Shown here: positions 8,720 to 31,745 of the stretch, in pieces
Layout of the letters: each line of letters starts with the position of its first letter
Position numbering within the stretch: the first letter of the stretch is position 1
NCBI GenBank assembly: GCA_023418705.1
Contig: JAEZYZ010000062.1
Span: forward strand, 17,875 to 81,874
Direction: 5' to 3'
Source of the DNA: Pseudomonadota bacterium
GTDB taxonomy: Bacteria; Myxococcota_A; Polyangia; Polyangiales; Polyangiaceae
DNA length: 64,000 nt
The notes under the pieces: generated by a model
Told to the model about the DNA's origin: nothing
What the model saw: only the letters and a program-made list of their open reading frames with translations
The model's database searches: none
Made by a program: the position numbers and the translations under genes

Positions 8720-8774
8720 GGTTTCCTCAGTCAGGAGAGAGGTTTCGCGGGGGCGTCGTGCGAAGAGGACGGCT

Positions 8775-9746
8775 CTAAAGCTGCCCGCTCTGGAGCACCG
8801 CCAGGCGCTCCTTGAAATCGGCGATGGTGCGCTTCAACCCTTCCTTGAGCGAGATCGTCGGTTGAAAGCCGATGAGCTCGCTGGCGAGGGTGATGTCCGG
8901 CCGGCGCTGCTTGGGATCGTCGGTGGGCAGCGGGTGGTGCTCGATGCGGGTATCGGCGCCGACGAGCTCCCGAACGATATTGGCAAGCTCGATCATCGTG
9001 AACTCACCGGGGTTGCCGATGTTCACGGGGCCATCGAGGGACGGCAGGCGCGAGACGCGGATGAAGCCCTCGAGCAGGTCGTCGACGTAGCAGAACGAAC
9101 GCGACTGCTTGCCATCTCCGAAGATCGTCAGCGGCTCCCGCTTGAGGGCCTGGGTGATGAAGTTCGACACCACCCTGCCGTCGTTGAACGCCATGCGTGG
9201 GCCGTAGGTGTTGAAGATGCGGACGATCCGCGTGTCGACACCCCACGAGCGCTTCGCGTCCATCAAGAGCGTCTCCGCCCCCCGCTTGCCCTCGTCATAG
9301 CAAGAGCGCGGTCCGATCGGGTTCACGTTGCCCCAATAGGACTCCGGCTGAGGGTGCACGGTCGGATCGCCATACACCTCCGAGGTCGAGGCGTGGATGA
9401 TGGTGCATTTCCGCCCGCGCGCCATTTCGATCAGCCGCTGCGCGCCGAGCACGCTGGTCGTGAAGGTGGCGTAGGGGTCGTGCTGGTAGTGCACGGGGGA
9501 CGCGGGGCAGGCGAAGTTGAACACCATCTCCGCGTAGACGTGGATCGGCTCGCGCACGTCGCCAGCCTGGAAGTGGAAATGCGGGTTTCTCGCGGCCCGA
9601 GCCAGGTTCGTCAGATCGCCTGTCATCAAGCTGTCGAGGCCGACGACCTCGAAGCCTTCGTCGAGCAACCTGTCGACCAGGTGAGAACCGAGAAAACCCG
9701 CGGCACCAGTGACCAATACCGTCCGGCGGACTGAACCGAGACCCAT
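8775..9746 (-). CDS. UDP-glucuronate decarboxylase (UDP-xylose synthase), SDR family
   Basis: 323 aa. VLVTGAAGFLGSHL Rossmann motif, ASTSEVYGDP, catalytic YDEGKR, NTYGPRM, GDGKQSRSFCYVDDL. This motif set is typical of UXS-type extended SDRs. ATG start at 9746. Confidence 0.9.
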   Translation of the reverse strand: MGLGSVRRTVLVTGAAGFLGSHLVDRLLDEGFEVVGLDSLMTGDLTNLARAARNPHFHFQAGDVREPIHVYAEMVFNFACPASPVHYQHDPYATFTTSVLGAQRLIEMARGRKCTIIHASTSEVYGDPTVHPQPESYWGNVNPIGPRSCYDEGKRGAETLLMDAKRSWGVDTRIVRIFNTYGPRMAFNDGRVVSNFITQALKREPLTIFGDGKQSRSFCYVDDLLEGFIRVSRLPSLDGPVNIGNPGEFTMIELANIVRELVGADTRIEHHPLPTDDPKQRRPDITLASELIGFQPTISLKEGLKRTIADFKERLAVLQSGQL

Positions 9747-10018: not shown

Positions 10019-11221
10019 TCAGAGATCGAGCGGCCTTGGCGAGAGCGTCAGACCGACGAAGCCCGCCCAGATCGGCTCGAACCCTTGGTCGTCGAGGACG
10101 CCGCCGATCTCGAAGTCCTGCCAGACCACCGATAGGCCGGTGTCCACGGAGAGCTCTGGGGCAATCTGGTAGATGGCGCCGACGGAGGCGCCGTAGCTGG
10201 TGAGCGAGACCTCGCTGTTGCCGCCCAGCGAGCGTGTCCCGGAGGTCGAGCCAACCAGGGTCCAAAAGCCACGGGTGCGGCTCACCGCGGCGCTCCACAG
10301 CACCCGCTGGTCGACGCCGCCCGTCGTTCGATCGACGACGGGGGACACGCTGACGTTGAAGGTCAGGCCGAACCGATCGAGCTCGCGCGCCACCGAATAA
10401 TCCATGCCGGCGCTGCCCGCCGGAAGGAGCTGAGTGTCGCCGCCGGGGAGATCGTCGTCCTCGAACCGGGTCCACGCCAGCCCGGCACCGACCGACCCGG
10501 TCCAGGTCGTGCTGAAGCGGTGCGACCAGACCTCCTCCAGGCTCACGATGACGGCCTTCTCGTCCGGCTCGGTCACCGAGTAGCGCCCGTCGAGTCGCGT
10601 CGACAGGCCGTCGTTACGGCTGAGCGCGTAGCCGAGCCCGACGCCGCCGTAGCCCTGCCGCTGCAGCGGGTAGGCCGCGCGGGAGACGTTGTTCAGGCCG
10701 CCGCTGACCGAATACCCAACGAACTCCGACAGCCCCCAGCGGCGCGACAGCACGTGGCTGAGGCCGAGGGAAGTGTTCGAGGAGCCGATGCGCACCACCT
10801 GGTCGACCGCGCGGGTCTGGGTGACCGACGGATCGGGGGGCGGCGTGGTGGGATCGGGGCTCTCGGCGGGTGCTTCGGGGGCGGAGAGCGTCAGCGCGTC
10901 GAGCCGCAGGTTGCGGCGCCCATAGCCCGCCGACTGCATGAGCGAGAGGGTCGTCCTGCGGAAGCGGAGGTTGGCGGCCGCCGTCAGGTTGTGGAACACC
11001 ACGAGCTCGGCGTCGGGATCCTGGAACGAGAACAGCGTGATCGTCGGCGCGTAGGTGAGGGAGTACGAGGTTCGGGGCGTGGTGAGCGCCAGGGTCACCG
11101 AAGGGCTCGTCTGGGCGTCGAAGTCGAGCTCACCATCGAATTCACGCCCGCGCAGCTCCGTGCGGTCTGCGGCGCCAAGCGTCAGCGCCTGCGCCAAGAT
11201 GGGAGCGAAGAGCGGCAGCAT
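10019..11221 (-). CDS. predicted outer-membrane beta-barrel protein, partner of the adjacent short OPX protein
   Basis: 400 aa. Signal-peptide-like start (MLPLFAPILAQALTLGA), then about 380 aa of alternating beta-strand-like segments rich in G/S/T/Y/R (YSLTYAPTITLFSF, GVGLGYALSRNDGLSTRLDGRYSV, TSYGASVGAIYQIAPELSVDTGLSVVWQDF). No enzyme motifs. It starts 20 nt after the OPX stop. Confidence 0.6.
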   Translation of the reverse strand: MLPLFAPILAQALTLGAADRTELRGREFDGELDFDAQTSPSVTLALTTPRTSYSLTYAPTITLFSFQDPDAELVVFHNLTAAANLRFRRTTLSLMQSAGYGRRNLRLDALTLSAPEAPAESPDPTTPPPDPSVTQTRAVDQVVRIGSSNTSLGLSHVLSRRWGLSEFVGYSVSGGLNNVSRAAYPLQRQGYGGVGLGYALSRNDGLSTRLDGRYSVTEPDEKAVIVSLEEVWSHRFSTTWTGSVGAGLAWTRFEDDDLPGGDTQLLPAGSAGMDYSVARELDRFGLTFNVSVSPVVDRTTGGVDQRVLWSAAVSRTRGFWTLVGSTSGTRSLGGNSEVSLTSYGASVGAIYQIAPELSVDTGLSVVWQDFEIGGVLDDQGFEPIWAGFVGLTLSPRPLDL

Positions 11222-11241
11222 CGGGTGCTCCCGGCGGCCGA

Positions 11242-11841
11242 CTACTCGGCAACGACGACGTCGCCCGACTGCAGCTTGAAGCGCTGGACGTGCTGCGCTC
11301 CGCGCAGAATGTCCACGTAGTCGAAGCGAATGCGCTGTCCGTCACGCAAGACGTACACGGCCGTCTCGTCGGCGAACTCGGTCAAGCCGCCGGCCTCGGC
11401 CATGGCGTCGATCAGGCGCGCGGGGGGCGGCAGCGCGAAGCGCCCGGTCTCTCGCACTTCCCCGAGCACGGTGACCTGAACGGTCGACTCCTCGATCACG
11501 ACGATGACGTGGGGCTCCGCCACGAACGGCTTCAGCAGCTGCTCGAGCTCGCGAGCGGCGGCCGACGGGAGCTTGCCCGCGAGCTGCTGCTCGCCCAGAA
11601 GCGGGATGGCCACGAGCCCGTCGCTTCGGACCCGCGCTCGCACGGACATGGGCTCCTGACCGAAGACGCGGACGCTCACGACGTCTCCAGGGCGGATGAC
11701 CTCGGGGTGGATGGGCGCCGCCGCGGGCTGATAGCTCTCCGCGCGGACGTAGGTGCCGCTGCCGCGGCAAGCCGCCATGAAAAACGCGGCGCCCGCCACC
11801 AACAAGAGAAGGCCGTGCCGGAGTCGAAGCTGGTGACGCAT
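11242..11841 (-). CDS. short outer-membrane polysaccharide export (OPX, Wza-like) lipoprotein
   Basis: Poly_export-type segment (VIRPGDVVSVRVFGQEP...[33 protein letters not shown]) and one SLBB-like segment (VTVLGEVRETGRFALPPPARLIDAMAEAGGLTEFAD). Lipobox FFMAAC. At only ~200 aa it has no Wza-type C-terminal membrane helix. Three in-frame ATGs (11880, 11853, 11841); the last gives the best signal peptide. Confidence 0.85.
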   Translation of the reverse strand: MRHQLRLRHGLLLLVAGAAFFMAACRGSGTYVRAESYQPAAAPIHPEVIRPGDVVSVRVFGQEPMSVRARVRSDGLVAIPLLGEQQLAGKLPSAAARELEQLLKPFVAEPHVIVVIEESTVQVTVLGEVRETGRFALPPPARLIDAMAEAGGLTEFADETAVYVLRDGQRIRFDYVDILRGAQHVQRFKLQSGDVVVAE

Positions 11842-15583: not shown

Positions 15584-18500
15584 TCACGGCCGCCGGCGGC
15601 GATCGAGCATGGCCTGGCGCAGCCGCTGTCGCTCGGCGCCGCGCTCGGCGCTTTGGTCGAGCGCCCCGGTCGAGGCGGCGTCGCCTTCGGCCAGAAAGCG
15701 CGCCAGACCCCGGATCGTGGGGTACCGGAACAGGTCGACCAGCTGCAGCGGGCGGCTGACCTTCGGCTTCAACTTGCCGAGCAGCTGGACGGTGAGCAGG
15801 GAGTGGCCGCCGAGATCGAAGAAGTTGTCGTCCACGCCCACCGCGGGCAGCTTCAGCACCTCGCGCCACATCTCGGCGATGAGCAGCTCGTGCTCGCTGC
15901 TCGGCCGCTCGCGCTCCGCCAGCGGCGCCTTCTGTTGCTGCTCGGGTGCCGGCAGGGCGTTGCGATCGAGCTTCTTGTTGGGCGTCTGCGGGAACGCGGT
16001 CATCGGCACGATCGCGGCCGGCAGCATGTAGTCCGGGAGGCGCTCGGCCAGGTGTTGCTTGAGCGCGCTCGTGTCGACGCCGCCGCCGTCGGGGATGACG
16101 TAGGCCACCAGGCGCTTGTCGCCTTGCGTGTCCTCTCGGGCGAGCACGACCGCCTGACGCACCGCCGGGTGCTCGGTCAACAGGGCCTCGATCTCGCCGA
16201 GCTCGATCCGGTAGCCGCGGATCTTGACCTGGTGGTCGGCTCGACCGCGGTAGCGTAGAACGCCGCTTGGATCGACGGTCGCGACGTCTCCCGTGCGGTA
16301 GGCGCGCGCGCCCGGGCGGAAGGGGTGGGCGACGAACCGGCTCGCCGTGAGCTCGGGCCGGCCGAGGTAGCCGCGGGTCACGCCGTCGCCGGCGATCAAG
16401 AGCTCGCCGTCTTCGCCGGGGGGCAGCAGGTTGCCGCAGCGGTCGACCACGAACGCCTCTTGATTGTGCAAGGGGCGTCCAATCGGGATGTCGGTCGAGG
16501 ACTCGGTGACCTCGTGCGAGGTCGACCACACCGTCGTCTCGGTCGGACCGTAGACGTTGATGAGCCTGCCTGGGAGCGCTCGCCGCAGGTCAGCAGCCAG
16601 CGCGCCGCCGAGCGCCTCCCCGCCGACCAGCAGCGTCTGCAGCTCCCCCAAGCGCGCGCGCGTCTCGTCGTCGCCGACCAACATGCTGGCCATCGAGGGC
16701 GTGCACTGCAGGTGGGTGACGCCATGCCGCTCGATGAGCTCCGCCAGCGTGGCATCCGCTTCGTCCACGTCGCTGTTGCAGCGAGCGTGCACCTCCGCCA
16801 AAAGCGGCAGGTTCTGCAGCACCTGATCGGTGGGGACCCCGAAGTCGATCAGGCAGGCGATTTCGTCGACGTCGGATCGCCGCACGGCGTCGACGATGCC
16901 GAGCGCCGATTCCACGCTGCCGAACAGCCCGCTGGTCGCGTAATACCGCTCGAAGGCATGATCGAGCAGCGCGTCCATCTCCTCGGCGCTGAGGTTGTCG
17001 GTGGTGAAGGAGCCGCCGTCGAGCCGGTGTTTGAAGGCCGGGAACGACCAGGCGGCTTCTTTGATCAAGCCGACGGAGGTCCGCAGGTACTGCTTCATGG
17101 GCTCGCGGACCGCGCGCTTCACCGCCTCGTCGCTCTCCCCCACGAAGGTGTGGAGCATGAGCGACACGGTGCCGCGCCCGGGGTGACCCGCTTCGGTCCA
17201 GGCCTTGCGATAGATCCGAACCTTCTCGGTCAAATCGGCGAACGACTGACCGAGCAAGTGGGTCAACAGGTTGGCGCCGATGCGCCCCGCTCGCTCGAAC
17301 GTCTCGGGGCTGCCTGCCGCGGTCACCCAGACGGGCAGCTCCTTCTGCACCGGGCGGGGCAGCGTGCCGATGACCACCTCGCGCCCCTCTCCATTTCGGA
17401 AGGGCAACCGCTCTCCGCGCCAGAGGCGGCGCACCGTCTCGATCGCCTCGAACATGCCGTCTTTGCGGTCGGCAAACCCCTCCGGGCGGATGCAGAAATC
17501 ATTCGGCTGCCAGCCCGAGGCGAACGAAATCCCGACGCGGCCGTTCGACAGGTTGTCCACCAGCGCCCAGTCCTCCGCGATGCGGATCGGCGAGTGCAGC
17601 GGCGAGACACAGCTGCCGGCCCGCAGCGCCACGCGCTTGGTGATCATCGCCAGCGCCGCGTTCGTCACGGCGGGGTTCGGATAGAGGCCGCCGAAGGCGT
17701 GGAAGTGCCGCTCTGGCGTCCACACGGCGACAAACCCGTTTTCGTCGGCGAAGCGCGCCCCTTCGGTCAACAGCCGATAGCGATCGCCGCCTTGGGCGTT
17801 CTCGTCGGCGGAGAAGTAGAACGCCGAGAAGTCGACGCGGCGCGCGTTCTTGGCCCCCGCGGACACCGTGCCCGAGGAGACGACCACGTGAAAGCCGTGG
17901 GTCAACGTCCAGAGCAGCTCGAGCACCGAGATGTCGAAGGACAGGCTCGTGACCGCCAGCCAGGTCCCCGGCTTCTCGGGCCGGAGCACCTCATCCATGC
18001 CGCGGAAGAAGTTGACCACGTTGCGGTGCTCCACCATTACGCCCTTGGGGCGCCCCGTGGAGCCCGACGTGTAGATGACGTAGGCCAGGTGATGGCCTTC
18101 GACGCCGCTCTGGGGCGGGCTCGCTGCACCGTCGTCGACGCTCCCGTCGTCCACGACGATCTTGTCCAGGCGACCCAGACCGCTCCGGCCTTGGTGCGCT
18201 CGGTCGGTCAGCAAGAGCGTGAGCGCTGCGTCTTCGATCACCAGCCGGAGGCGCTCCTCGGGGTAGCGCGGATCCAGCGGGACGTACGCGCCGCCTGCCT
18301 TGTGGATGGCCAGGAGGCTCACCAGCAGGTGCACGCTCCGATCCATGAAGACGCCGACCAGCGTGTCGGGCCCGACCCCGCGCTGCTGCAGCCGATGCGC
18401 CAAGGCGTTGGCGCGGGCGTCGAGCTCGGCGTAGGTCAGGGTCACGCCGCGGGCGGTCACCGCCGGTCGATCCGGCGTCCGCGCGGCTTGCGCGGCGATC

Positions 18501-20137
18501 AGCACGTGCAGGCACGCGGGACCGTCGAGCGGCTCGGCAGGAGGGTTGAGCTGTCGTAGCAGCGCCGCTTCCTCCTCGCTGACGAGTGGCACAGCCGAGA
18601 GCGGGACATTGGCCGTCGGCGCGTGCTCGAGGAAGACCCCGAGGCGCGCGGCGATCGAGCGGAGGCGCGCCTCCGAGCAGCGCGCCACGAGGCGCAGCCG
18701 CCCAGCTTTCGTGTTCACGCAGAGCAAGAGATCCCGTGTCGCGTCCGGCGGCTCGGGATCGACATCGACGAGCACCGCGACAGCGAGCGGCGCCGGGGCT
18801 TGTCCGCTCCTCAGCGCCAGGTCCACCGGATGCGGCTCGGTTTGGCTGAGCCGCAGCCGCTCGCGTTCGATGCTCTCGACGGCGGCTCCGACGCCGAGGG
18901 TCGGCGATAGGCTCAGGCGCAGCGGGGACGCGCCAGCGAGCAAGCGGGGCGCCATGGCTTGCTTGTCGCGCAGGGCCGGATCGGCATAGGCGACGTCGAG
19001 CTCGAAGCACTGGCAATAGCGCGCCAAAAAGGCGAGGCCGAAGGCCGCGGCGTGGGACGCCGGTACGCCCGGCGCAAGGGGCACCTCGATCGAACGTTCG
19101 GGGGCGGCCGGGTCTGGGTTGAGGTCGAGCGACGGATTGTTCGGCGCCCGCAAGATCGCGGCAAAGCGCGGCTCGTGCCGGGCGGCGGCCTTGGCGGCCG
19201 CTTCGAAGCGCGCTTTGAGCTCCGCGTCGACGAGCGGGAGCTTGCTGCCCACCTCGATGCCGGCGGCGCGCAACGCCTCGGCCGTGAGCGGCTGCCCGTC
19301 GGTCAGGCGCAGCCCGGAGAGCCGAACGCCGGTGGTCGAGCTGGCGACCACCAGCGCGTCGCCGTCCACCTGGAGGACGGTCCCCGGCGTCCCCGTCGAA
19401 GCTTCGGGATGGGCTCGGGACACGAGCAGGACGCCGCTGGGGGTGAGCAGCTTGGCGCACCCGACGGGGTTTGGATACGTGCCAAAGTCGAGCGCGCGCA
19501 CGACGCGGACGATCGCGTCGGCCGCTTCGTCGAAGCAGAGCACGCCGGCGGCCGGCGGTCGCTCGGAGGCCCCGAAATAGGTGCGCTGCGAAGGGTCCTG
19601 AGCCTTCGGCTCCAGCGTGCCGGAGACGATGGCCTCGGTGAGGTCCCGGAAGCTCTCGATCCCGGCCGTGAAGCATTTGGCGTTGAGGCTGAACGCGGTC
19701 TCGTCCGCGGCGACCTCGAACGACCGCTGGATGAAAATGCGCCCGGCGTCCGCCTGCGCCGTCATCTCGTGCCAGGTCACGGCGTGCGTCGGCTCGCCGT
19801 TGAGCAGCGCCCAGACCGGGGCGTTGAGGCCGGCATACCGGGGCAGCGGCCCGTCGTGGAAGTTCACCGCGAAGCGCCGCGCCCGCTCGAGCAGCTCCGC
19901 CGGCAGGATGCGGAAGTTGACCACCGAGAACAGCACATCGAAGGGCTCCGCCGCGGCCGCGCTCGTCAGCTCGCCGGGATCGATGACCCGCAGCCGTTGC
20001 TCGCGAGCCCACTCGACGACGGTGGGTTCGCGGCTGGCGATGCCGCGGATCCGCTGTCCGGCGTGCTGCCAGATCTCGACCGCCTGAATCAGCAGCGTGG
20101 CTTCACCGACGAACCAGGCTTCAAGCGGGCTCTGCAT
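15584..20137 (-). CDS. NRPS: formyltransferase-like / condensation C-lobe only / A domain (Gly-type code) split by luciferase-like monooxygenase / PCP
   Basis: 1517 aa. ATG at 20137 overlaps the PKS stop by 17 nt. Domains by motif:
- Fmt-like domain (aa 1-300, nt ~19238-20137) with [13 protein letters not shown] and ...ADAGRI, so the N/H/D triad is present.
- C-lobe-like segment without HHxxxDG (aa ~320-530, nt ~18548-19180).
- A-domain motifs A1-A4 ([35 protein letters not shown]; nt ~17873-18520).
- LLM insert of ~355 aa ([10 protein letters not shown]...[12 protein letters not shown]...[19 protein letters not shown]; nt ~16778-17845).
- A5-A10 ([38 protein letters not shown]; nt ~15938-16765).
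- PCP (FFDLGGHS; nt ~15683-15904).
There is no C-terminal release domain. Confidence 0.95.
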
Positions 20138-23100
20138 GGGATGACCTCGATACGGGCGGCAAGGGTCCGGGCGCCTCTTCGAGAGCGCGCTTCAGGTGCG
20201 CCGTCAGCACGCTCACGTTTGGCTCCAGGATCAGGCTATCGTGGGTGCCGGGGACCTCGACGATCTCGAGCCCCGGCAAGAGGCCGTCCCAACCGAGGGT
20301 CGGCCCGACATGTTGAAACACCTCCGCGACGCGGTCGGCGCGGAACAGGATCACGCGACCTTCGTAGCGGCGCGCGCGGTAGCGCGCCGAGGCTTCGTAG
20401 AAGCTGCGCGTCAGCTGCAGCTCTCGGAGCTCCAGCGGCAGCGGCTGCTGCTGGCTGAGGTAGAAGCGGAGCTTGAGCTCGGCGGACAGCTCGTTCAGGT
20501 GACGGGACCACTTGGCCCGGCTGCGCTCGGACAGGTACGCGGTGCCGCCCTGGAGCAGCTTGGTGATCCGATCGGCGAGGGCGGGCTTGCGCGGGCGGGT
20601 CGAGGGCTCGAACGTGTCGAACAGCACGACGAGCCGCACCTGCTTGCCCTGGGCGATCAGCTGGTGGGCCATCTCGAGCGCCACCACCCCGCCCCCGGAA
20701 TAGCCGCCGAGCACGTACGGTCCCGAGTGGTCGATTTGCGATAGCTGCTCGACGTACAAACGGCCCATGTCCTCGATGGTCTGAAGGGGCGTCTCCCCGT
20801 TCACGCCCAGCGCCTGCAGCCCGTAAAACGCCTGATTCGAGGGGAGCCGCCGCGCCAGGTCGTAGAAGTTCAACACGTTGCCGCCCGCGCCGTGGACGCA
20901 GATGAACGGCGGTCGTTCCGGGCTGCCCTTTTGGATCAAGACCAGGGGGTTGAAGCCGTCGTGGGCTGCGGGACGCCCGTTCGGGCGCTCCGGCGCGGCG
21001 CGGCCGTTCTTCGGGACCTCGAGGGTCTTGCCGAGCCGCTCGCGCAGGATGTCGGCGCACTGCTCGATGGTCGGCGCCTGGAAGAGCACGGCGAGCGAGA
21101 GATCGACCCCGTGCGTCTTCTTGATCCGCGAAAATAGCCTCACCGCGATCAGGGAATGCCCGCCGAGCTCGAAGAAGTTGTCGTGAATGCCGACGCTGGA
21201 GACGCCGAGCAAGGCGCACCACATCTCCGCCAGGCTCCGCTCGATCTCGTCGCGCGGGGCATCCTCCCGCTGCGCTTCCGCCGTCGGGGCGCTGGGGCGC
21301 GCCTCGACGCGCGCTGGCTTCAGATCGGCGGCGAGGGTCTCGAGCGGAACGGGCGTGGCGACGACTTCGCCGCGCCAGCCGCTTCGCAGCACGCGATCGA
21401 CGACCCGGAGGCCCTCTTCCAGGGTGAGCCCCTCCTCGAACCAGCGCTCGAGCGGCGAGGGGGCCGTGGCGGGGGCAGCTGGGGCGGTGAGCGCGCGGGC
21501 GGGCATGCTCTTGGTCACATAGCCGTCGATGGTGGCGACGACCTTCCCGTCGAGGTCCGCCAGCTGCAGGTCGAAGACGGCGACGCCGTCGGACCCGGGC
21601 GCCGATCTCAGCCGCACGTGGCTCATCAGCTCGGCGGGCAGCGGGGCGCGGATCGTCAAGCGCTCGTACGAGAGGGGGATCCGCAGCAGGTCTGCCGCGT
21701 CGCCCGTGTCCGCCAGCGAGAAGGCGAACCCCGACGCCATGTCGAGCAGGCCGGGGTGCAGCGCGTAGTTCGCCTGCTCCCCGCGGAGCTCCTCGGGCAG
21801 ACGCAAGAGGGCGAGCGCCTCGTCCGTCCCGAAGTGCATCTCGCGGATCACCTGCCAGTGCCGACCGAGGGCCAGGTGGCGGTCCTGAGGCAGCTCCTGG
21901 CGCTCCTCGAAACGCTGGCTTCGGTGGCCGCAGCGGCGGCGGATGGCGTCGAGATCGAGCGGCGCCGGCGCCGGCGCCTGGTCGACGCGCAGGCTCCCTC
22001 GAGCGTGCTCGACCGCGCTCGGCTCGCCCTTCCCACGGCTCGAGATGGTCACGGTCACCGTCGCCGGCTCGGAGCGCACGTCGGTCACCACCTCCAGCTG
22101 CCGCTCGGCGCCGTCCGGGATCGACAGCGGGCGCGCAAACAGCAGATCGCTGAGCTCGAGCGCGGCGGCGTCGGGCAAACCGAGCGCCCGGGCGCCCGCA
22201 GCGCGAACGATCTCCACGAAGCCGGTGCCGGGCAGCACGGCCGTGCCACCCCGCACGCGGTGCTGATCCATCACCCACAGCGCGCGCGGGGAGTAGGTAG
22301 CCCGAAACCCGAGCTGGTCCATGCGCTCGCGGTGCAGGCGGCCTAGCAGCGGGTGTCCCACGACGTCACCTTCGGCGGGCGCCTCGACGCGCGAGAGCGC
22401 GCGCGCCGCCATCCCCACCTCCTTCCAGACGCCGAAGCCCAGGCTGAGCACGCGCGTCCCGGCTTCGGAGTAGCGCCGGGCGAGCTCCCGTCCGAGCGCG
22501 TTGAGGTAGCTGTTGGCGGCGGCGTAGTCGATCTGCCCGGGAGGGCCGAGCACCGCGCTCGTCGAAGAGATGAGCAGCAGCAGCGCGGGCGGATCTTGGG
22601 CGAGCGCCTCGACCAGGTGGCGGCTGGCGTCGAGCTTCGGGGCGAGGACAGCGCGGGCCGCGGCGCGCGTCTTCACCGCGAGGGGCGCGTCGTCGAGGAC
22701 GCCGGCCGCCTGCACGACGACGTCGACGCGACCGAAGCGGGCCTTCACCCGGTCGAGCAGGGCATCGGTCTCCGCCCGGGAGGCGAGGTCGCCACTCTCG
22801 ACGACCACCTCATGGCCCGCTGCGCTGAGCTCGAGCAACAGCTTGAGCTTGCCGGCGAGCGGATCGCTCGAGCCGAGCTCCTCGAGCACCTCGGCCCAGT
22901 GTTCTCGCTCCGGAAACGGATGGCGTGTGACAAGGACCAGGCGAGCGTTCAGCGTGTCCGCGAAGTGCTTGGCCAAGGTGCTGCCGATGCCGCCGAGGCC
23001 GCCAGCGATCAGGACGATGGGCTCGGGGGGCAGGGGAGCGCCGGCGTCCGAAGCCGGGGCGTGGGTGAAGATCTGGGCGAGGCGCCGTCCGTCGCGTTCG

Positions 23101-26100
23101 GTCGTGACCTCGTGAACCTCCGACGCCGCGGCCTCGAGCAGGACGGAGCGCGCGGTGGCCTCGCTGTCTTGCAGGGCCGGCACCTCGAACAGGACGGCCC
23201 TGACCTCCGGCAGCTCCTTGGGGATGACCCGCACCGGGCCCTCCGCCAGCGCCGCCAGGGCGCCCGAGCTGCCGCCGCCGTCGTCGAAGACCCCCGAGCA
23301 AGCCACCAGCAGGCGCGTGTCGGGATGCAGGCTCTCGCGGGCGAGCGCTTGAGCCAGGTGCAAGAGCGAATAAAAACAGCGGTCGAGCGCGGGCTCGAGG
23401 GGAGCTTCGGGGGATCGCAGCTCGGGGGACAGGCAGAGCGTGTGCACGATCCGGGCGGGGACTCCGGCGTCGCTGACGACGTGCTGAAGCAGCGTCTCGT
23501 AGTCTTCCGGATGGGCGAGCCTCAGCTGATACCGTCCCCGTTCGAGCCGCTCGGTCGTGGCTCCGGGCGTCACGATCGCGGGTTTTATACCGCGCGCGCG
23601 CAGCTCGAGCTCGAGCGCCCGGCAGAGCGGCCCTTCGTCGGCGAACAGCAGCCACACCTCGGCCGGATCGAAGGTCGTGGCTCCGCGATCCGCTTCGGAG
23701 AAGCTCGGCTGGAAAAACCATTTGGAGGCGTCGGGCTCCCGCCGAGCGGAGGGCGCGTCCTCGGCGGCGCCAAAGTAGCCCTTGCCCGGCTCGATCCAGT
23801 AGGGCTCGTGCTCGAAGGGCGTCGCCGGCAGCGGAACGATCGTCCGCGGGGTGTTCAGCAAGCGCTCGAAATCGACGCTCCCACCGTGGGCTGCGATCCG
23901 GCCGACGCTCGTGACCAGGGTCGTCACATCCGATGAGCGATCCTTCGCGTGCGGAGAGACCGGGACCACCGGGCGCTGTTGGTTCGCGCGCAGGGTGGAG
24001 GTCAGGGTCTGGCCTGGACCGACCTCGACGAAGATCGCGTCCGGGTGACGCTCGAGCACACCGGCGACCCCGGCGGCGAAGCGAACGGTCTCTCTCAGGT
24101 GACGGACCAGGTAGCGCGCGTCGATCTCTGCCGCTTCGGGGAAACGGCCGCTCAAGTTGGACACGAAGGGGATGCGCGGCGCGTGAAAGGTCACGCCGGT
24201 CAGCGCCGCCGCGAACTCATCGAGGATCGGATCGAGCAGCGGCGAGTGGGCGGGCACGTCGATGCGCAGGCGCGTGGGGTGCACGTCCTGGGCGAGCAGA
24301 TCGCGCTCCAGGCGCTCGAGCGCCTCCGAGCTGCCGGAGACGACGCAGAGGTCGGGGGCGTTGATGGCGGCGATCGACAGCTCGCCCTCGAGCAAGGGGG
24401 CGAGCTGTTCACTCGGCATCGGCACCGACAGCATGCCGCCGCGCCGAACCTTCTCGAACAGGCGACCCCGGCAGCAGACGACGGCCAGCGCTGCGCCCAG
24501 CTCCAGGACCCCGGAAAGGTGGAGCGCGGCGTACTCCCCCAGCGAGTGGCCGATCAAGGCCGCCGGGCGCACTCCCCAGTGATCGAGCAGGCGCGCGTAG
24601 GCGATCTCGATCGAGAACAGGGCCGGCAGCGCCAGGGAGGGACGCTCGAGCTCCCGCGCCGCGGCCGATACGTCCCCATCCACGAAGAGCAGGGGACGAA
24701 GATCGATGTTTTCTTGCCGCTCGAGGACGCTCAAGCATTCGTCGAGCGCGTCGCGAAAAACGGCTTCGCTCTCGTAGACCTCGCGGGCCATGTTGGGGTA
24801 TTGCGCGCCCCCGCCCGGAAACACGAACACCACGCTAGCGGCTTCACCTGGGGCGTGCACATCGAAGACGCGCGCCGTGTCCGGCCGGGCCAAGAGCTCA
24901 GCGGCCTCCGACGAGCTCTTGGCGGCGAGCACCCGCCGGTGAGCGAAGCGGCGCCGGCCGCGGAGCAAGGTCGAGCTCACCTCGGACAGCACCAGGTCCG
25001 GATGCTCGGCGAGGTGCGCGCTCAGGCGCGCGGCGTACTCGTCGAGGGACCCCTGGCTGCGCGCCGCGAGCAACAAAAGCTGCGGCTTGTCACTCGCGGC
25101 GGGTGACCGCCGCCGCGGCGCTTCTTCGAGGATGGCGTGCGCGTTGGTGCCGCCGACGCCGAGCGAGCTGACGCCGGCGCGTCGTGGCCCGGTGCCCTTC
25201 GGCCACGGCGCCCGCTCGTGCACCACGTAGAACGGGCTCGCCGCGAAGTCGATCTGCGGGTTGGGTCGCTCGAAATGCAGGGTCGGGGCGAGCTGCTCGT
25301 GCTCCAGCATTTGAGCGACCTTGATCAAGCTCGCGACGCCCGCCGCGGTGTCCAGGTGGCCGATGTTCGACTTGACCGACCCGACGCCGCAGTAGCCGCG
25401 GTCGTCGTTCGTGCGGGAGAAGGCGCGCGTGAGCGCCGTCAGCTCGATGGGATCGCCCACCGGCGTCCCGGTGCCGTGGCATTCGACGTAGGAAATGTCG
25501 CGGGCAGTTAGCCCCGCCACCTGGAGCGCTTCGACCACGCACTCCGCCTGACCATCGACCGATGGTGCCAGGTAGCCGATCTTGCGGCTGCCGTCGTTGT
25601 TGACCGACGTGCCCTTGATGAGCGCGTGGATGTAGTCACCGTCGGCGATGGCGTCCGCCAGGCGCTTCAGGACGACGACCCCCGCACCGGATCCGAACAC
25701 GGTTCCTTTGGAGCGCTCTTCGAAGGGGCGGCAGTGGCCGTCGGGCGAGAGGATTTCACCCTCTTCGTAGAAGTAGCCGCGGCCGTGGGGCAGCTCGAGC
25801 GTCACGCCCCCGGCCAGCGCCACGCCGCATTCTCCGGAGAGCAGGCTCTGGCAGGCCATGTGAACGGCCACCAGCGAGGTCGAGCAGGCGGTCTGGACGT
25901 TGATGGACGGCCCCTTCAGATCGAGGCAGTAGGAGACCCGGGTGGCCAGAAAGTCCTTGTCGTTGCCGGTGTGCCGGACGAGGAACAACCCCATCGACTG
26001 CATGAGGTCGGGGTTGGTGAACAGGTGGTAGGGCAGGTAGGCGTTCATGCCAGAGCCGGCGAACAAGCCGATCGGGATCGCCGCGGCCTCGGGCAGGATG

Positions 26101-26444
26101 CCGGCGCTCTCGAGCGCCTCCCAGCACACCTCCAGGAAATGGCGGTGCTGCGGATCCAGCACGCTGGCTTCGCGCGGAGAGAAGCCGAAAAACTTGGGAT
26201 CGAACAGCGAGAGGCCGTCGATCGGCGCCGTCGCCCTCACGTAGCGAGGATCGGTGAGGTGCGCGTCGGGCACGCCGGCGCGGCGCAGCGCCTCGGCGCT
26301 CGGGAACTGGATGCTCTCCACTCCGTCGCGCAGGTTCGCCCAGAAGCGGAACACGTCCGGCGCTCCTGGGAACCGAGCTGCCATGCCCACGATGGCGATG
26401 TCCGTACTCTGTAGTTGATCGTCGTCGACGTCGTATGCGCCCAT
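20121..26444 (-). CDS. type I PKS: KS / AT / KR / DH / PCP-type carrier / thioesterase
   Basis: 2107 aa, ATG at 26444. Domains by motif:
- KS (TACSTS, ECHGTGT, SNIGH; nt ~25125-26405).
- AT (GHSLGE, with VPAHS where HAFH/YASH normally sits; nt ~23865-24833).
- KR ([13 protein letters not shown] in [16 protein letters not shown]; nt ~22395-23732).
- DH ([23 protein letters not shown]; nt ~21501-22361).
- Carrier (FFELGGHS; nt ~21030-21251).
- TE (GYSGGG, PGTHDS; nt ~20175-20957). Confidence 0.95.
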
Positions 26445-26508: not shown

Positions 26509-27927
26509 TCAGTACGCGTTGCTGCGAACTTTGCGCCCGAACACGGTCAAGAAAATGATGCGCAGATCCAGTCCGAGGTCCCAGTTCTGGATGTAGTAGA
26601 GGTCGTGCTCGAGGCGCTTCTCCATCTTGTCGAGCGTCTCGGTCTCTCCGCGCCAGCCGTTCACCTGCGCCCAGCCGGTGATGCCCGGCTTGACCTTGTG
26701 GCGCAGCATGTAGCGGTAGATCTGGGAGCGGTAGAGCTCGTTGTGGGCGACGGCGTGCGGCCGCGGACCGACGATCGACATCTGCCCTGCCAGCACGTTG
26801 AAGAACTGCGGCAGCTCATCGAGCGAGGTGCGCCGCAAGAACGCGCCGAGCGGGGTGATGCGGCTGTCGCCCTTCTTGGCCTGACGTACCGTGTCGCCGT
26901 CTTCGCAGACGGTCATGGTACGAAACTTCAGCACGGGGATTTCTTTGCCGTTCAGGCCGTAGCGCCGCTGAACGAAAAATACCGGCCCCGGCGACGTGAG
27001 CTTGATCAGGATGGCGATGACGACCATCGGCAGGCTGATCAGCAGCAGGATCAACGTCCCGAGCACGATGTCTTCCAGCCGCTTCACCCACCCGCCGAGA
27101 CCATGAAACGGGGTGTGTTGGATCGCGACCACGGGAACGTCCCCGAGGCTCGACCATTGCGCTTGCAACAGATCGAACACGAAAAAATCGCCCACGACGA
27201 AGACCGACGCGGTCGTGTCCGACAGGCGCTGCAACAGGTCGTTGATCCGAGACTCGGCGCGCAGGGGCAGCGCGATGTAGACGTAGTCGACCGGGTTGTC
27301 CTTCATGTGGACGAGCAGCTCGTCGAACCCACCTTTGAACTCGGCGTATTGCTCGCTCATCTTGTGGCGGCGCGACTCGATACGATCGTCGTAGAACCCG
27401 ACTACCTGCATACCGACAGCGGGATCGGCCATGTGCTCGCAAAGGCGCTCGGCCGCGCGGGTCATGCCCAGGATGGCGACGGTGCGCGAGTTGCGGCCGC
27501 GCCGGCGCAGCTCCTGCAGAAAGAAGCGGACCGCCAGCCGCCAGACGGCCAGCAAGTTGGGGGTCAGCAGGAACCAGCCCACGGTGATGACGCGTGAGAA
27601 GTTCTCCGTTTGTTTGGTCGCGAACCCCAGAAACAGCAAGACTGGAATGACGCAGACCCACGTCAGGACCACCTGGGTCAGCTCACTGACCACCGGATCT
27701 CCCCGCCAGGCGCGGTAGAGGCCGTTCAACTCGGACGCCAGGTAGAAGGCGATCACGGCCACGCAGCTGGCGACCGTGTCCTCGAGCCGCCAGCCCTGGT
27801 CGTATCCCCAAACCAGGGCGTACAGGCCGACGACGATGAAAATGGCGTCTGTGATGCGCTGCCCCATCGTGATGAGGGGCGCGTAGGTTTTCAGGAAGCC
27901 GTCTTTGATGCCGCGCTGCTCAGTCAT
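26509..27927 (-). CDS. polyprenyl-phosphate hexose-1-phosphate transferase (WcaJ/WbaP-type priming glycosyltransferase)
   Basis: N-terminal TM helices, then the C-terminal bacterial sugar transferase domain: SPGPVFFVQRRYGLNGKEIPVLKFRTM, SLDELPQFFNVLAGQMSIVGPRP, KPGITGWAQVNG. ATG at 27927 preferred over the TTG at 27942. Confidence 0.9.
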   Translation of the reverse strand: MTEQRGIKDGFLKTYAPLITMGQRITDAIFIVVGLYALVWGYDQGWRLEDTVASCVAVIAFYLASELNGLYRAWRGDPVVSELTQVVLTWVCVIPVLLFLGFATKQTENFSRVITVGWFLLTPNLLAVWRLAVRFFLQELRRRGRNSRTVAILGMTRAAERLCEHMADPAVGMQVVGFYDDRIESRRHKMSEQYAEFKGGFDELLVHMKDNPVDYVYIALPLRAESRINDLLQRLSDTTASVFVVGDFFVFDLLQAQWSSLGDVPVVAIQHTPFHGLGGWVKRLEDIVLGTLILLLISLPMVVIAILIKLTSPGPVFFVQRRYGLNGKEIPVLKFRTMTVCEDGDTVRQAKKGDSRITPLGAFLRRTSLDELPQFFNVLAGQMSIVGPRPHAVAHNELYRSQIYRYMLRHKVKPGITGWAQVNGWRGETETLDKMEKRLEHDLYYIQNWDLGLDLRIIFLTVFGRKVRSNAY

Positions 27928-28260
27928 CTGACACTCGTGCAACTTCGACCAAAGCGCGAGAAGTCGCTCACTCTTATCTACCGAAATCGGGGTCTGGGGT
28001 AAATAGTGGACTCACACCGGCACCTCGGGATTGTCTCGGATTCAGCTCCTTTTTGTTTCCCCGGTCTCGTGTCGACCTGGGGTCGGCCGGTCTCCGCCGG
28101 CCTAGTTCAAGCCGCGGCTTGGGCTTTGTTCTTCCTTTTTTCGCGCCGCAGCGCGGCCTAGCTAAATGCGCCCGGGCGCTCGGCGCCCGCGAAGAAACGA
28201 CCTCCGAGCGGATCGTTCACGATGGGACCGCGGCCTTGCCGTGTCGAGTTCGGGGTGGAC

Positions 28261-28376: not shown

Positions 28377-29288
28377 TCAGACGTGCACGACCCCTTCGCC
28401 CACGACACGGCACTGGCCCCCGACGCGCAGCTCGGTCAGAGCACCATTGGCGTGCGCCAGGCTCACGTGCAGGATGCTCGGGCGGCCAAGCTCCGTTCCT
28501 TGCTCGATCGCGAGGCTCGCCGCCGGGGGGAGGTCTAGCAGGCCATGCCTGACGGCATAGCCCACGACCGGGCCGCAGGCGGATTCGGACGCGGGCTCCT
28601 CGTCCTCGGTGTCCTCCGGGGAGAACACACGGATTTTTAGCCGGGTGTCCTTGCGGCTCGTTTGTACGGAGAAGGCGAGCAGGTTCGGTGCTTCGAAGCG
28701 CTGCAGCGTCCGCTCCCAGATGCTGCGCCGAAAGGCAATGCTCTCCAAGGTCTGGCGGTTCTTGAGCGCGACGATCAGGTACGGAACACCCGAGGAGACG
28801 GCTTGTAGCGGTGCGTCATCCAGGAAGTGCTCACGCCGCAGCGAGAGCATCGCGGCCACGGCTTCGGGTTCCGGGTATTGCCTGCCGAAGACGGGCAAGT
28901 CCTGTTTGACGGTCAGCAAGGGGGCGAACACGGCCACGGAAACCGGGCCGTCCCGCTCTTCGAGCACGATGCGCCGCTGCGCGGCGGGCGGACGGCTCCC
29001 CTTCTGCTGCAGGTCGAGGGCGAAGACGGTCGCGATGGTCGGCAAGCCCGCCCGTGGCAGCTCGCGCGTCGGAGTGAACACCCGGATTTTGGCGTGCGCC
29101 TGCGGATCCGAAGACGGAAAAACGAAGCTGCACTGAGGCAAGCTGAGCTCCCGGGCGATGGCGGCCATCTGTTCATCCGCCAGCCCGGTGGCGTCGGTGA
29201 AAACCGCAACGCGCTTGCCGGCGAATGGGCGTTCGGCAAACACGTTGACCAGCTTGTACCCGTAGCTGAGCATGAGACCCGAGTCCAT
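28377..29288 (-). CDS. PhzF-family (DapF-fold) isomerase-like protein, divergent active-site positions
   Basis: 303 aa. KLVNVFAERPFAGKRVAVFTD...MAAIARELSLPQCSFVF...IRVFTPTRELPRAGLPTIAT matches the PhzF/YddE N-terminal pattern, and the two-domain length is right. Confidence 0.75.
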   Translation of the reverse strand: MDSGLMLSYGYKLVNVFAERPFAGKRVAVFTDATGLADEQMAAIARELSLPQCSFVFPSSDPQAHAKIRVFTPTRELPRAGLPTIATVFALDLQQKGSRPPAAQRRIVLEERDGPVSVAVFAPLLTVKQDLPVFGRQYPEPEAVAAMLSLRREHFLDDAPLQAVSSGVPYLIVALKNRQTLESIAFRRSIWERTLQRFEAPNLLAFSVQTSRKDTRLKIRVFSPEDTEDEEPASESACGPVVGYAVRHGLLDLPPAASLAIEQGTELGRPSILHVSLAHANGALTELRVGGQCRVVGEGVVHV

Positions 29289-29328
29289 TGTCTCAGCTAC
29301 CTACGGGAACGTCTCGTAAAGGACAAGC

Positions 29329-29350
29329 CCGATCCGCGAAATCGGATCGG
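29329..29350 (-). terminator. possible terminator hairpin after the kinase-like gene
   Basis: CCGATCCG-cgaaat-CGGATCGG (8-bp stem), 118 nt downstream of the stop. On the minus strand it is followed by GCTTGTCCTTTACG, which is only weakly T-rich. Confidence 0.3.
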
Positions 29351-29467
29351 CGTCGCCGGCCGCGGGCCTTCGGGCCTTCAGGCCTTCTCCGATGGATCCA
29401 ACCCGAGCGTGCCGCCCGCGCGGGTCTCGCGCCGGCTCGGGCTAGTCCCGAGCTGGTCCCAAGCTCG

Positions 29468-31603
29468 TCACCAGGGCCGCAAGAGCAAGATCAGCGCCAG
29501 CAGCGTCGCCACCGCGAGCATGGCGTAGATGATCCCTCGTCGCTTGACGCTTCGCGCGGTCTTCTGGCGGTCTTTCGCGCTCGCGAGCTCGTCCGAGACG
29601 CCAGCGCCGAGCGCGCCGCTCGCCGCCGCAGGCGGGCGCTCGGAGTCTCGGAGCGCCAGCGCCCTGAGCTGCAGGCTCTTCCCGACCGCCGCCAACACGC
29701 AGGCGGAAATTTCGGTGCGCGACGCCAACCAGCCCTCACGGCTGCCGATGCGCTCGAGCTCATCGGCGAACTGCTCCGCCGTTGGAAAGCGGTCCGCCGG
29801 GCTCAGCGCCAAGGCCTTCGCGCAGAGGGCGTCGAAGCAAGCGGGTGGACGGTTGCCGATTGAGCTCGGCGGAGGCAGTGGGCGGTGCAGCTGGTTGTGG
29901 AGCACGTCCACCACGGCTTCGCTGCCGCCGAACGGAGGGGTGCCCGTCAGCGCGGCGTACAAAACCGCTCCCATCGAGAACACGTCGGCGCGGGCGTCCA
30001 GAGGCAAACCGCGCAGCTGCTCGGGTGAGCGAAAGGCTGCCGCGAGCGTGCTCAGGTCATCGCCGGGGGCGTTGCGGGGGGCGAGGCCTGCCAGACGGCA
30101 GCCGCCGTCGGTTCCGATCAAGAGGGCGCGGGGAGTGATGTTGCCGTGGACCAGGGGCTGGTTGAGCCGGCTCCCCAAGGCGTGCAAGGCGTGAAGCCCG
30201 CGCAAGGCTTCGATGATCGGCGGCAGCAGCAAGGCGGGGGAGCTCCAGCGGGCAGCCAGGAGGTCGCCCAGCGTGCCGCCCTCGACGTAAGCCATCGCTA
30301 AATACGGATTTTCCAGCGGCCCCACGTCGAGGACGTCGACCAGATTCGGGTGCAGCCCGCTGGGCACCTGTCGAACTTGGCTCAGAAAAATCTCGAGCGG
30401 CTGCGGGCTGTCGGGCGACGCGAACACCTTGATCGCGACCAGGGGGCGCACGCTCGTCGTCGCGCGCTGGCGCGCCAGGTAGACGGCCGACGCACCGGCG
30501 TTCTCCAGACACACTCCAAGCTCGTACTTCTCTGGATTCTTCGGGGCGACGATCGTGTTGCGAGGGGGCGCGCTGGGCCGGGAGCCGTCGCTCGCCGGCT
30601 CTTCGAGCTGCGGAGAGAGGTTCCTCAGCACCGGCGTTGCCGCCTCGGCTGGAGCGTGGACGATCGCGGCAGTCTGTTCCGTTGGCTCCGAAATCCGGCG
30701 GAAAAAATCTGCCTCGGTGGCTGGAGCCTGCGAGGGGAGGCTGCCCTCGGGTTCCGGCCAGCCCCGAATCGTGTCGGGGGGGCGCCGGCGCTCCGCGGTG
30801 GGCGTCCTGGCGCCGTTCGAGCCGGAGATGCTGATCACCGGGGCGGCCGTCAGCTTCTCGAAGGTCGGTGTCGGGCTCTGGCCGATCGGGCTCTGGCCGG
30901 TCGGGCTCTCGACGGGAGAAAACCCGGTGAGGGTCCTTGGGTAGCGGGAGCGCTGCGGGGAGCGGTAGAACGAAACGGGTTGGAAGTCTTTGAGCGTCGT
31001 CGTGCGCTCCACCGGCGGCGGGCGCGCCGCCGCGCCGTTCGGGGCGGTGGCTTCGACGCCGTTCGCCTCGCCAAGCGAGCGGCCTCCGCCGCGTTCGAGC
31101 AGCCCCCGGACCAGCAGGTCTCCGATGTCCCGGAGGGCGGCCACGGTGCCGACGTTGGTGGCGCCGAGCACCTGCCAGAGCGTGCGCTGTCCGTCGCAGG
31201 CCGCGAGCAGCGCTCGCTGCCTCTCCGACAGGCTCTGGGACGCAGGACCGCTCTTGCGGGCGAGGACCCCGTCGAGCGGCGGGCACGCCTTCAAGCGCTT
31301 CGTCCAGGGCTCGACCCGCGTGGCGTGCAGCGCGAACAGGCGCCGCGCCCGCTTCTTGAACGCGCCGCCGACGGCAGCGTCCGGTGGTGCGAGCTCGAAG
31401 CTGCCACGATTCAGCGCCAGCACGCGGTAGAGGGCCTTTTCTCCGCGGAACGTCCCGAAGGCGGCGTCGACGAGATCGCCGTGGCGCAGCGAGATGCTGG
31501 CGCGCATGCGGTCGCACTCGATCAACACTTCGGCGCTCAGGCTCGCCGCCTCGAGCGTCAGCAAAAGCTCCGCGAGGCCGCCGGGTGACAAGGTTTCGCG
31601 CAT
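29468..31603 (-). CDS. DUF4388-like N-domain + Ser/Thr-kinase-like domain (predicted pseudokinase) + C-terminal TM anchor
   Basis: 711 aa. The N-terminus (GGLAELLLTLEAASLSAEVLIECDRMRASISLRHGDLVDAAFG...GEKALYRVLAL) has a DUF4388-like pattern. Kinase fold at aa ~359-620 with VAIK, SPE, DVFSMGAVLY and a late Arg. HRDLKPxN is replaced by HGNITPRA and DFG is absent (CRLAGLAP). C-terminal helix IIYAMLAVATLLALILLL. Confidence 0.8.
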   Translation of the reverse strand: MRETLSPGGLAELLLTLEAASLSAEVLIECDRMRASISLRHGDLVDAAFGTFRGEKALYRVLALNRGSFELAPPDAAVGGAFKKRARRLFALHATRVEPWTKRLKACPPLDGVLARKSGPASQSLSERQRALLAACDGQRTLWQVLGATNVGTVAALRDIGDLLVRGLLERGGGRSLGEANGVEATAPNGAAARPPPVERTTTLKDFQPVSFYRSPQRSRYPRTLTGFSPVESPTGQSPIGQSPTPTFEKLTAAPVISISGSNGARTPTAERRRPPDTIRGWPEPEGSLPSQAPATEADFFRRISEPTEQTAAIVHAPAEAATPVLRNLSPQLEEPASDGSRPSAPPRNTIVAPKNPEKYELGVCLENAGASAVYLARQRATTSVRPLVAIKVFASPDSPQPLEIFLSQVRQVPSGLHPNLVDVLDVGPLENPYLAMAYVEGGTLGDLLAARWSSPALLLPPIIEALRGLHALHALGSRLNQPLVHGNITPRALLIGTDGGCRLAGLAPRNAPGDDLSTLAAAFRSPEQLRGLPLDARADVFSMGAVLYAALTGTPPFGGSEAVVDVLHNQLHRPLPPPSSIGNRPPACFDALCAKALALSPADRFPTAEQFADELERIGSREGWLASRTEISACVLAAVGKSLQLRALALRDSERPPAAASGALGAGVSDELASAKDRQKTARSVKRRGIIYAMLAVATLLALILLLRPW

Positions 31604-31745
31604 GGCTGGATGGTGAGGGTTTGGGGAACGATACCGATAGCACGGACGCGCGCCCGTTCAGCGGGCGATTTGCGTCGGCGCGAAGCTCCGCGCCCTTCCG
31701 AATCTCGTTGCCGCGCGAGCGCCTTCCGCTACCCTCCCGGGCGCC

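Follow-up and report, generated by a model that had tools for sequence, protein, structure and literature searches.

We analysed a 64,000-nucleotide stretch (the window) of contig JAEZYZ010000062.1 from a Polyangiaceae bacterium (GCA_023418705.1), which encodes on its minus strand a polyketide synthase (PKS) of 2107 aa (20121-26444) and, directly downstream, a loading protein of 1517 aa (15584-20137) resembling a nonribosomal peptide synthetase (NRPS). We consider it moderately likely that the two proteins form a hybrid NRPS-PKS line primed with glycine, in which the PKS serves as the only module for extension and release. The ketosynthase (KS) of the PKS ranks by score with KSs of hybrid type, and an adjacent cognate NRPS ending in a peptidyl carrier protein (PCP) accompanies it in 12 loci. 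The PKS is a further member of a large, widespread hybrid NRPS-PKS family for which no product is known, and its layout is a variant rather than a new principle.

The PKS open reading frame (ORF) starts with an ATG at 26444 and stops at 20121. The ORF list, translation and Pfam give the order KS, acyltransferase (AT), structural subdomain of the ketoreductase (psiKR), ketoreductase (KR), dehydratase (DH), PCP-type carrier and thioesterase (TE), and 45 full-length homologues are built alike. The KS (residues 15-392; 25269-26402; Pfam E 6e-70 and 3e-41) has an intact Cys-His-His set in the conserved motifs TACSTS, HGTGT and NIGHL, and is followed by a KS-AT linker (residues 394-519; Pfam). The AT (residues 539-821; 23982-24830; Pfam E 2e-47) retains its Ser, Arg and His, with GHSLGE, LALPALF, and VPAH where HAFH or YASH is expected. 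The KR (22419-23651) comprises the structural subdomain (PF21394, residues 932-1049) and the catalytic subdomain (PF08659, residues 1144-1342, E 2e-36), and carries GVLDDAP (the xDD of B-type KRs) and DYAAANS, with Ser-Tyr-Asn in place. After it comes the DH (residues 1364-1652; 21489-22355; PF21089 (PKS_DH_N) and PF14765 (PS-DH)) with GHPLLG and HPGLLD, the latter including the Asp. The carrier (PP-binding, residues 1737-1798; 21051-21236) has the motif FELGGHSL, and the TE (residues ~1846-2080; 20205-20909; Pfam 1846-1949, E 2e-25) has its Ser in GGYSGGG, plus Asp and His.

The order of domains had been proposed, from the letters alone, in a first-pass annotation of this DNA, and it stands, as do the motifs quoted there for the KR (LDD, YAAAN) and the AT (GHSLGE, VPAH, LALPALF). 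Two of the DH motifs it gave, HPLLG and HPGLLD, are likewise present; the third, the canonical HxxxGxxxxP, is in fact HxxxGxxxxxP, one residue longer, and is identical across the family. The GGHS carrier, described there as PCP-like, finds its best matches in the PDB among NRPS PCPs (AB3403, PvdL, LgrA, SrfA-C). The reported overlap of the PKS stop with the NRPS start also holds (20121-20137, 17 nt), and the NRPS start agrees with homologue N-termini (MSSSAWFVGD and MTTVASAWFVGE).

The placement of the KR before the DH is real rather than an artefact of domain calling. By Pfam only ~108 residues separate the AT from psiKR, which is too short for a DH of ~280 aa, and residues 929-1347 align in a PDB sequence search with the KR crystal-structure sequences of MlnE and AmphB, and also PksJ. 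Residues ~1361-1654 match solved DHs (MAS, PksJ, CurK, CurF, CurJ and GphF). Thus, a cryptic DH between AT and KR is ruled out, and the return to the canonical order that the first-pass annotation had named as a possible outcome does not occur.

Homologues show that these features belong to a family. A protein search returned about 45 full-length homologues (2037-2165 aa, 43-58% identity over at least 98% of the query) with identical Pfam content. They come from metagenome-assembled genomes of Polyangiaceae (the closest), Myxococcus including M. xanthus DK1622 (ABF88750.1), Corallococcus, Pyxidicoccus and Vicinamibacteria; the 90% cluster of the window PKS includes a Polyangiaceae fragment. 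Across their alignment the catalytic residues of KS, AT, KR, DH, carrier and TE are kept. The atypical AT motifs are family-wide (consensus LaLPAl and vaAHS), and so is the GGHS motif of the carrier. The unusual features are thus conserved signatures of the family: the KR placed before the DH, the atypical AT motifs, and a carrier of PCP type joined to a TE of NRPS type.

The first-pass annotation had read the KR-then-DH order as a sign of an iterative enzyme like the PfaA-type polyunsaturated fatty acid (PUFA) synthases or the enediyne synthases (PKSE). In this alternative the PKS would make a polyene or other unsaturated acyl chain in several rounds, from an acetate or glycyl starter, with the TE setting the length. 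A KR and a DH without an enoylreductase (ER) would permit a polyene, a TE is present, and PfaA and PKSE do share the KR-before-DH order. However, we consider this alternative unlikely. In a KS-only search of the PDB (best 60 matches, the lowest listed at 227 bits), the window KS matched 7zma (630 bits), 4wky (531), 4oqj (493) and 8xjy (463) best, followed by ClbC (414), the 'Hybrid NRPS/PKS' 6mhl (389), the 'NRPS/PKS' 5elp (389) and ClbK (366). CurL (352 bits) and DEBS (~310) scored below the hybrid-line KSs ClbC, ClbK, 6mhl and 5elp, and no PUFA-synthase or enediyne-synthase chain was among these 60. By this score ranking, which is not a phylogeny, the window KS has its closest counterparts in hybrid NRPS-PKS or trans-AT lines and among KSs placed after NRPS modules. 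KS kinship was a check that the first-pass annotation had itself named, and it came out on the side of ordinary hybrid lines.

Other evidence also separates the PKS from the PfaA and PKSE types. The PfaA model TIGR02813 scored 336.5 bits against a cutoff of 1010.1 and covered only residues 165-821 (KS-AT). PfaA and PKSE have their carrier(s) between AT and KR, whereas Pfam found no tandem acyl carrier proteins (ACPs) there and placed the lone PP-binding domain, of PCP type, after the DH. The enediyne order is KS-AT-ACP-KR-DH-phosphopantetheinyl transferase (PPTase), but the window PKS has no C-terminal PPTase domain by Pfam or PDB matches and ends in PCP-TE. Genes resembling pfaB, pfaC or pfaD (KS-CLF, FabA-type DH, ER) or those of enediyne cassettes were absent from the 30 window ORFs scanned with Pfam, which reach to ~47 kb. 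In the PDB sequence search the KR and DH find their closest matches among the domains of modular PKSs, and the TE matches those of AB3403, Pks13 and EntF (carrier and TE together also match the Pks13 ACP-TE). Membership of the PfaA or PKSE families is therefore rejected on the model score, the KS ranking, the carrier position and the missing PPTase domain. The conserved, dedicated glycine loader described below also argues against the iterative reading.

The KR-then-DH block is in fact used in assembly lines of ordinary type. In an exhaustive search with residues 1140-1680, ~62 of the best 150 representatives (of 50%-identity clusters) matched KR and DH contiguously. Two proteins, P0013 and P0010, have a KS-AT-KR-DH-ACP module next to an ordinary KS-AT-KR-ACP module; P0292 is a multimodular line containing the block; and P0335 has KS-AT-KR-DH-T followed by condensation (C) and adenylation (A) domains. 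P0349, a metagenomic protein of 3898 aa, has KS-AT-KR-DH-ER-ACP after an NRPS part, so that its reductive loop stands in 'reaction order' rather than in the canonical DH-ER-KR order. These five lines, multimodular or hybrid, show that KR-then-DH is a regular module layout of hybrid lines. In P0013, P0292 and P0335 a module of this type stands mid-line, which lends indirect support to a single extension per chain. The order does occur in PfaA and PKSE, as the first-pass annotation had said, but it is not distinctive of them. For automated annotation this means that KR-before-DH does not by itself flag an iterative enzyme of the PUFA or enediyne kind. Literature searches for a KS-AT-KR-DH or KR-DH-ACP layout turned up only loose functional listings, not the architecture of this PKS.

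The partner protein has the form expected of a loader. Pfam and NCBIfam give a formyltransferase (F), a remnant of a condensation domain, a glycine-type A domain split by a luciferase-like monooxygenase (LLM), and a PCP. The formyltransferase (Formyl_trans_N and Formyl_trans_C, residues 1-295; 19253-20137) was recognised by PDB match, AF2 model and Foldseek. The AF2 model of residues 1-545 has a pLDDT of 90.6 and a pTM of 0.87, and in Foldseek the first 300 residues of that model overlay Fmt and the ArnA formyltransferase domain (TM up to 0.84). Asn92, His94 and Asp130 align with the catalytic triad of ArnA, and are kept in 12 loci. Residues 300-545 gave no Pfam match even at E 10, and Foldseek with the whole 1-545 model returned formyltransferases only. 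However, hhalign against a C-domain alignment identified residues ~318-540 (18518-19186) as a C-terminal lobe (98.3% probability, E 1e-14, template columns 209-478). The part of the domain that would bear HHxxxDG is missing, so the protein would not condense and would serve for loading only. This arrangement suggests descent from a C-A(monooxygenase)-PCP module in which the N-lobe was replaced by a formyltransferase like Fmt or ArnA.

The A domain (residues 548-758 and 1122-1389; 15971-18496; Pfam) is interrupted between A4 (FDxS) and A5 (NxYGPTE) by the LLM (residues 770-1116), which scores 506.6 bits with TIGR04020 (MupA/Atu3671 family) against a cutoff of 244. We read the A-domain codes by hand against the GrsA numbering. 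The code is DILQLGVVWK in the window and DILQ[LMF]G[MV][IV]W[KM] in the 12 loci, which come from five phyla or classes. Set beside the glycine signature (DILQLGLIWK or DILQLGMIWK), the code reads as glycine-type in all 12. The PCP (15692-15880; Pfam) cross-matches the PKS carrier at 41-48% identity and is followed by a basic C-terminal tail. SolG, returned as an NCBIfam match, was dropped as a relative of the loader, because it is a plain C-A-P protein and the match reflects only generic A-PCP similarity.

The PKS and the loader are paired well beyond the window. In four of four contexts anchored on the PKS protein (M. fulvus HW-1 and three metagenomic contigs) the PKS adjoins an F-A(LLM)-PCP gene; these contexts also carry a hydrolase and often a PPTase. 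A contig scan with a DH-T-TE alignment and generic PCP and TE motif patterns, followed by tblastn, added at least Candidatus Leptofilum (Chloroflexota, L005), Tabrizicola (L007, L010), Litoreibacter (L012), Pelagimonas (L069), Methylibium (L011), Novosphingobium (L013) and Sphingobium Leaf26 (L017). The scan passed over the close myxobacterial relatives, but it supplied the distant loci that proved most informative. Formyltransferase and LLM occur together in the 12 loci with a loader of F type.

The order of the two genes varies. In the window the gene with the TE is transcribed first, as the first-pass annotation had remarked, but the NRPS gene comes first in L005, L011, L013 and L017, and the order is thus without functional meaning. 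The termini of the proteins are more telling. In 12 of 12 loci the C-terminal tail of the NRPS is basic (+2 to +8) and the N-terminal head of the PKS acidic (-1 to -7), whatever the gene order; in the window the tail (15584-15690, minus strand) has a net charge of +5 and the head (26400-26444, minus strand) of -5. This conserved pattern likely represents an electrostatic docking pair that directs the NRPS to the PKS. The PKS would be last in line, as it ends in the TE. In the Leptofilum locus the cassette is followed by an ORF of 3012 aa (12545-21583 in L005) that encodes three more A-T units, and the match to the PKS TE is partial (111 aa). The enoyl unit derived from glycine may there be the beginning of a longer peptide.

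Two further loci, L006 and L009, have a different loader, a plain A-PCP protein with glycine-type residues and neither formyltransferase nor LLM. Directly upstream of the A-PCP gene in both is a carbamoyltransferase gene (2253-4011 in L006, 2384-4144 in L009). Carbamoyl may be the alternative N-cap in these loci, which suggests an N-capped glycine starter as the common theme. The carbamoyltransferase of L006 seems to be split or frameshifted into two ORFs.

These features are consistent with the following route. The A domain of the loader would activate glycine and place it on the loader PCP, as the code suggests, and the formyltransferase may then cap the amine with a formyl group. The embedded LLM, a monooxygenase by family, would oxidise the tethered unit, presumably at C-alpha by the precedent of MtaG and MelG. 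The loader PCP would next dock on the PKS through its basic tail and the acidic N-terminus, with the flow thus running from NRPS to PKS. The hybrid-type KS would accept the (N-formyl)glycyl unit, and the AT would add one malonyl-type extender, probably in one round only. The B-type KR would give a 3-hydroxy intermediate and the DH an (E)-2-enoyl group. An unsaturated acyl product had already been proposed in the first-pass annotation, and the xDD KR and the DH, which keep all catalytic residues, support it. The PCP-like carrier would present a 4-substituted but-2-enoyl thioester to the TE, which may free a 4-formamido(-4-hydroxy)but-2-enoyl unit, either through hydrolysis or by passing it on to a sugar or amine. 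Loading, oxygenation and beta-keto processing are the steps read partly from sequence.

The route turns an orphan cassette into a testable prediction: a glycine starter, an N-formyl cap (N-carbamoyl in the variant), optional oxygenation, one malonate extension to an enoyl and TE release, to which sugar transfer is recurrently linked. The family includes model organisms (M. xanthus DK1622 and many Roseobacters) and is still orphan, which makes the experiment worthwhile.

Several points count against the proposed route. Single-module bacterial PKSs, such as polycyclic tetramate macrolactam synthases, do iterate, and the sequence is compatible with more than one round of extension. The formyltransferase is nearer to ArnA (72 bits in the PDB sequence match) than to the F domain of LgrA (23 bits), and tethered glycine is thus only its putative acceptor. 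With VPAH and LALPALF the AT departs from the standard signatures of both malonyl and methylmalonyl ATs, and no extender is assigned. A hydroxylated N-formylglycine might collapse to formamide and glyoxylyl-PCP, altering the starter, and no product is known for any family member. The glycan link is contextual, and sugar genes are absent around the cassettes of M. fulvus HW-1 (L001), L002 and L004. As to the AT, its GHS[LM]GE is the non-Gln, malonyl-like form, and the AT-plus-linker share of the score (KS-AT minus KS-only PDB scores) is ~185-208 bits whether the reference AT is malonyl- or methylmalonyl-specific, and so does not tell the two apart. The extender is probably malonyl-type, with xAAH/VPAH preventing a firm call.

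The possible collapse of the starter leads to an alternative that we regard as unlikely. Here the formyltransferase would supply just a minimal N-acyl group, enabling the monooxygenase to hydroxylate C-alpha, and the adduct would release formamide and leave glyoxylyl-PCP. The PKS would then make 4-oxobut-2-enoyl (fumaraldehydoyl), a reactive electrophile that would either be set free or become attached to an amine or sugar. On the way to myxothiazol and melithiazol, monooxygenase domains lodged in the glycine A domains of MtaG and MelG carry out C-alpha hydroxylation, and carrier-bound glyoxylate is left after cleavage between N and C-alpha (PMC11342130). The C-lobe remnant, with its apparent origin in a C-A(monooxygenase)-PCP module, fits such chemistry. 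So does the distribution of formyltransferase and LLM, which are found together in the 12 loci and are both missing from L006 and L009. However, hemiaminals that carry N-formyl can be sufficiently stable to survive, and L006 and L009 lack a monooxygenase, so that a product retaining its nitrogen would unite the loci more simply.

It is far less probable that the two proteins act apart, with the PKS primed by another carrier and the NRPS-like protein modifying a sugar or some other substrate. The resemblance of the formyltransferase to those acting on sugar nucleotides, such as ArnA, would suit this, and a candidate source of another carrier exists in a second hybrid megasynthase within the polysaccharide locus of the window (1235-8833, minus strand). 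But none of the other loci with the PKS/NRPS pair has this second megasynthase. The pair itself recurs in different phyla, its genes either translationally coupled or a short gap apart, and the complementary terminal charges are conserved. The second megasynthase comprises a weak, partial Condensation match at its N-terminus (profile 194-277 of 456), A, PCP, KS, AT, a carrier and a class-III aminotransferase, and its A-domain code, also read by hand, is about DACDTGLVNK, to which no specificity is assigned.

Release by a TE with intact Ser, Asp and His upholds that part of the first-pass reading; its further suggestion, a sugar or amine acceptor, draws on genomic context. A gene for a polyprenyl-phosphate sugar-phosphate transferase (CoA_binding_3 and Bac_transf by Pfam; 26509-27942, minus strand) lies 64 nt upstream of the PKS. 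Pfam identifies a polysaccharide locus in the window, with Bac_transf, Wzy-like, family 2 glycosyltransferase (GT2), Poly_export, epimerase, RmlA, RmlB-like, RmlC, GT1 and methyltransferase genes. The Bac_transf protein is 42% identical to that of a gene flanking the cassette in Sphingobium (L017), and homologues also flank L019. In seven loci (L006, L011, L012, L013, L017, L019 and L069) the gene immediately after the PKS encodes a GT2 of ~335 aa, ManC precedes the PKS in L012, and L003 lies among exosortase and exopolysaccharide genes. Given the three myxobacterial contexts without sugar genes, the glycan link is recurrent, not universal. The recurrence of sugar-transfer genes nearby makes transfer by the TE onto a glycan a possibility.

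A bolder reading, which we hold only tentatively and think doubtful as a whole, extends the glycine-primed route to a pan-bacterial cassette (Myxococcota, Roseobacters, sphingomonads, Burkholderiales, Chloroflexota and Acidobacteriota). The cassette would build a glycine-derived but-2-enoyl unit, N-capped or with an aldehyde, and the TE together with GT2 or Bac_transf would install it on a lipid-linked sugar. If so, the polyketide/peptide would decorate a surface polysaccharide or glycolipid rather than be a free antibiotic, and the long-orphan PKS/NRPS cluster of Roseobacters would be solved.

Other genes of the window were noted. An alpha/beta hydrolase (306-1310, minus strand; Pfam, tblastn), ~14 kb from the cassette, is a possible accessory gene; it is 45-49% identical to the hydrolase adjoining the cassette in L002 and L003. 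Upstream of Bac_transf, PKS and NRPS, and on the same strand, 28377-31657 (minus strand) holds genes for a PhzF-family protein and for a Ser/Thr kinase whose N-terminal domain is DUF4388 (PatA_N-like). Two ORFs within the polysaccharide locus, 10019-11341 (440 aa) and 40836-41732 (298 aa), both on the minus strand, have strong coding-type GC3 and no significant Pfam match; the second has a sub-threshold match to ParB-HTH.

ABF88750.1 of M. xanthus DK1622 and its orthologues in Myxococcus, Corallococcus and Pyxidicoccus (~2088 aa) have the same architecture as the window PKS, and P0064, the representative of the 90% cluster of ABF88750.1, is 48% identical to it over 99% of its length. We found no assigned product for ABF88750.1 or its orthologues. 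In M. fulvus HW-1 the PKS, hydrolase and F-A(LLM)-PCP genes are adjacent; unlike in the window, they are not flanked by polysaccharide genes.

A conserved Roseobacter PKS/NRPS cluster (Martens et al. 2007, as cited in PMC4337385 and PMC5014874) is described as having four genes. It is present in 28 of 57 Roseobacter genomes and was without a known product in 2015-16 (PMC4337385, PMC5014874); our literature searches found no characterised product of this cluster. Litoreibacter (L012) and Pelagimonas (L069) have, as the window does, a PKS of KS-AT-KR-DH-T-TE build and an F-A(LLM)-PCP protein. In both loci a GT2 gene stands between PKS and NRPS, in the order PKS, GT2, NRPS, and in L012 a PPTase gene comes next; this matches the four-gene cluster (PMC4337385, PMC5014874). 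Judged by gene content, the Rhodobacterales form of the cassette is thus the 'conserved Roseobacter PKS/NRPS cluster'. With tblastn, domain queries from the window PKS and NRPS match L012 and L069 in unchanged order; the exceptions are the C-lobe, which is poorly conserved, and the PCP of the NRPS, which is a short query. Identity between the window and the Roseobacter-type loci is ~60% in the KS and 30-36% in DH-T-TE. In the opposite direction, neither GT2 (queries from L012, L017 and L069) nor PPTase (four queries from the clusters) had a match in the window at E 1e-3. Unlike the Roseobacter cluster, the cassette of the window is part of a polysaccharide locus, where it follows a Bac_transf gene.

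The loader can be compared with two kinds of characterised module. MtaG and MelG (C-A(monooxygenase)-PCP-TE) share with it a glycine-type A domain interrupted by a monooxygenase (PMC11342130). The loader differs in keeping only the C-terminal lobe of the C domain, without HHxxxDG, and in having a formyltransferase fused in front. The MtaG and MelG modules end their line, whereas the window loader would start one, and the counterpart of their PCP-TE pair sits on the PKS instead. LgrA (F-A-PCP) and starters of the OzmO and conglobatin type also have an N-terminal formyltransferase fold with Asn-His-Asp before A-PCP. Compared with LgrA, the formyltransferase of the loader is nearer to ArnA and Fmt, with a full Fmt-like C-terminal subdomain, and it is accompanied by the C-lobe remnant and the embedded LLM. 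Passing N-formylglycine to a PKS is a known route to the oxazoles of oxazolomycin and conglobatin. In contrast to those starters, no cyclodehydratase is conserved in the cassette, and it is the KR and DH that would process the beta-keto group.

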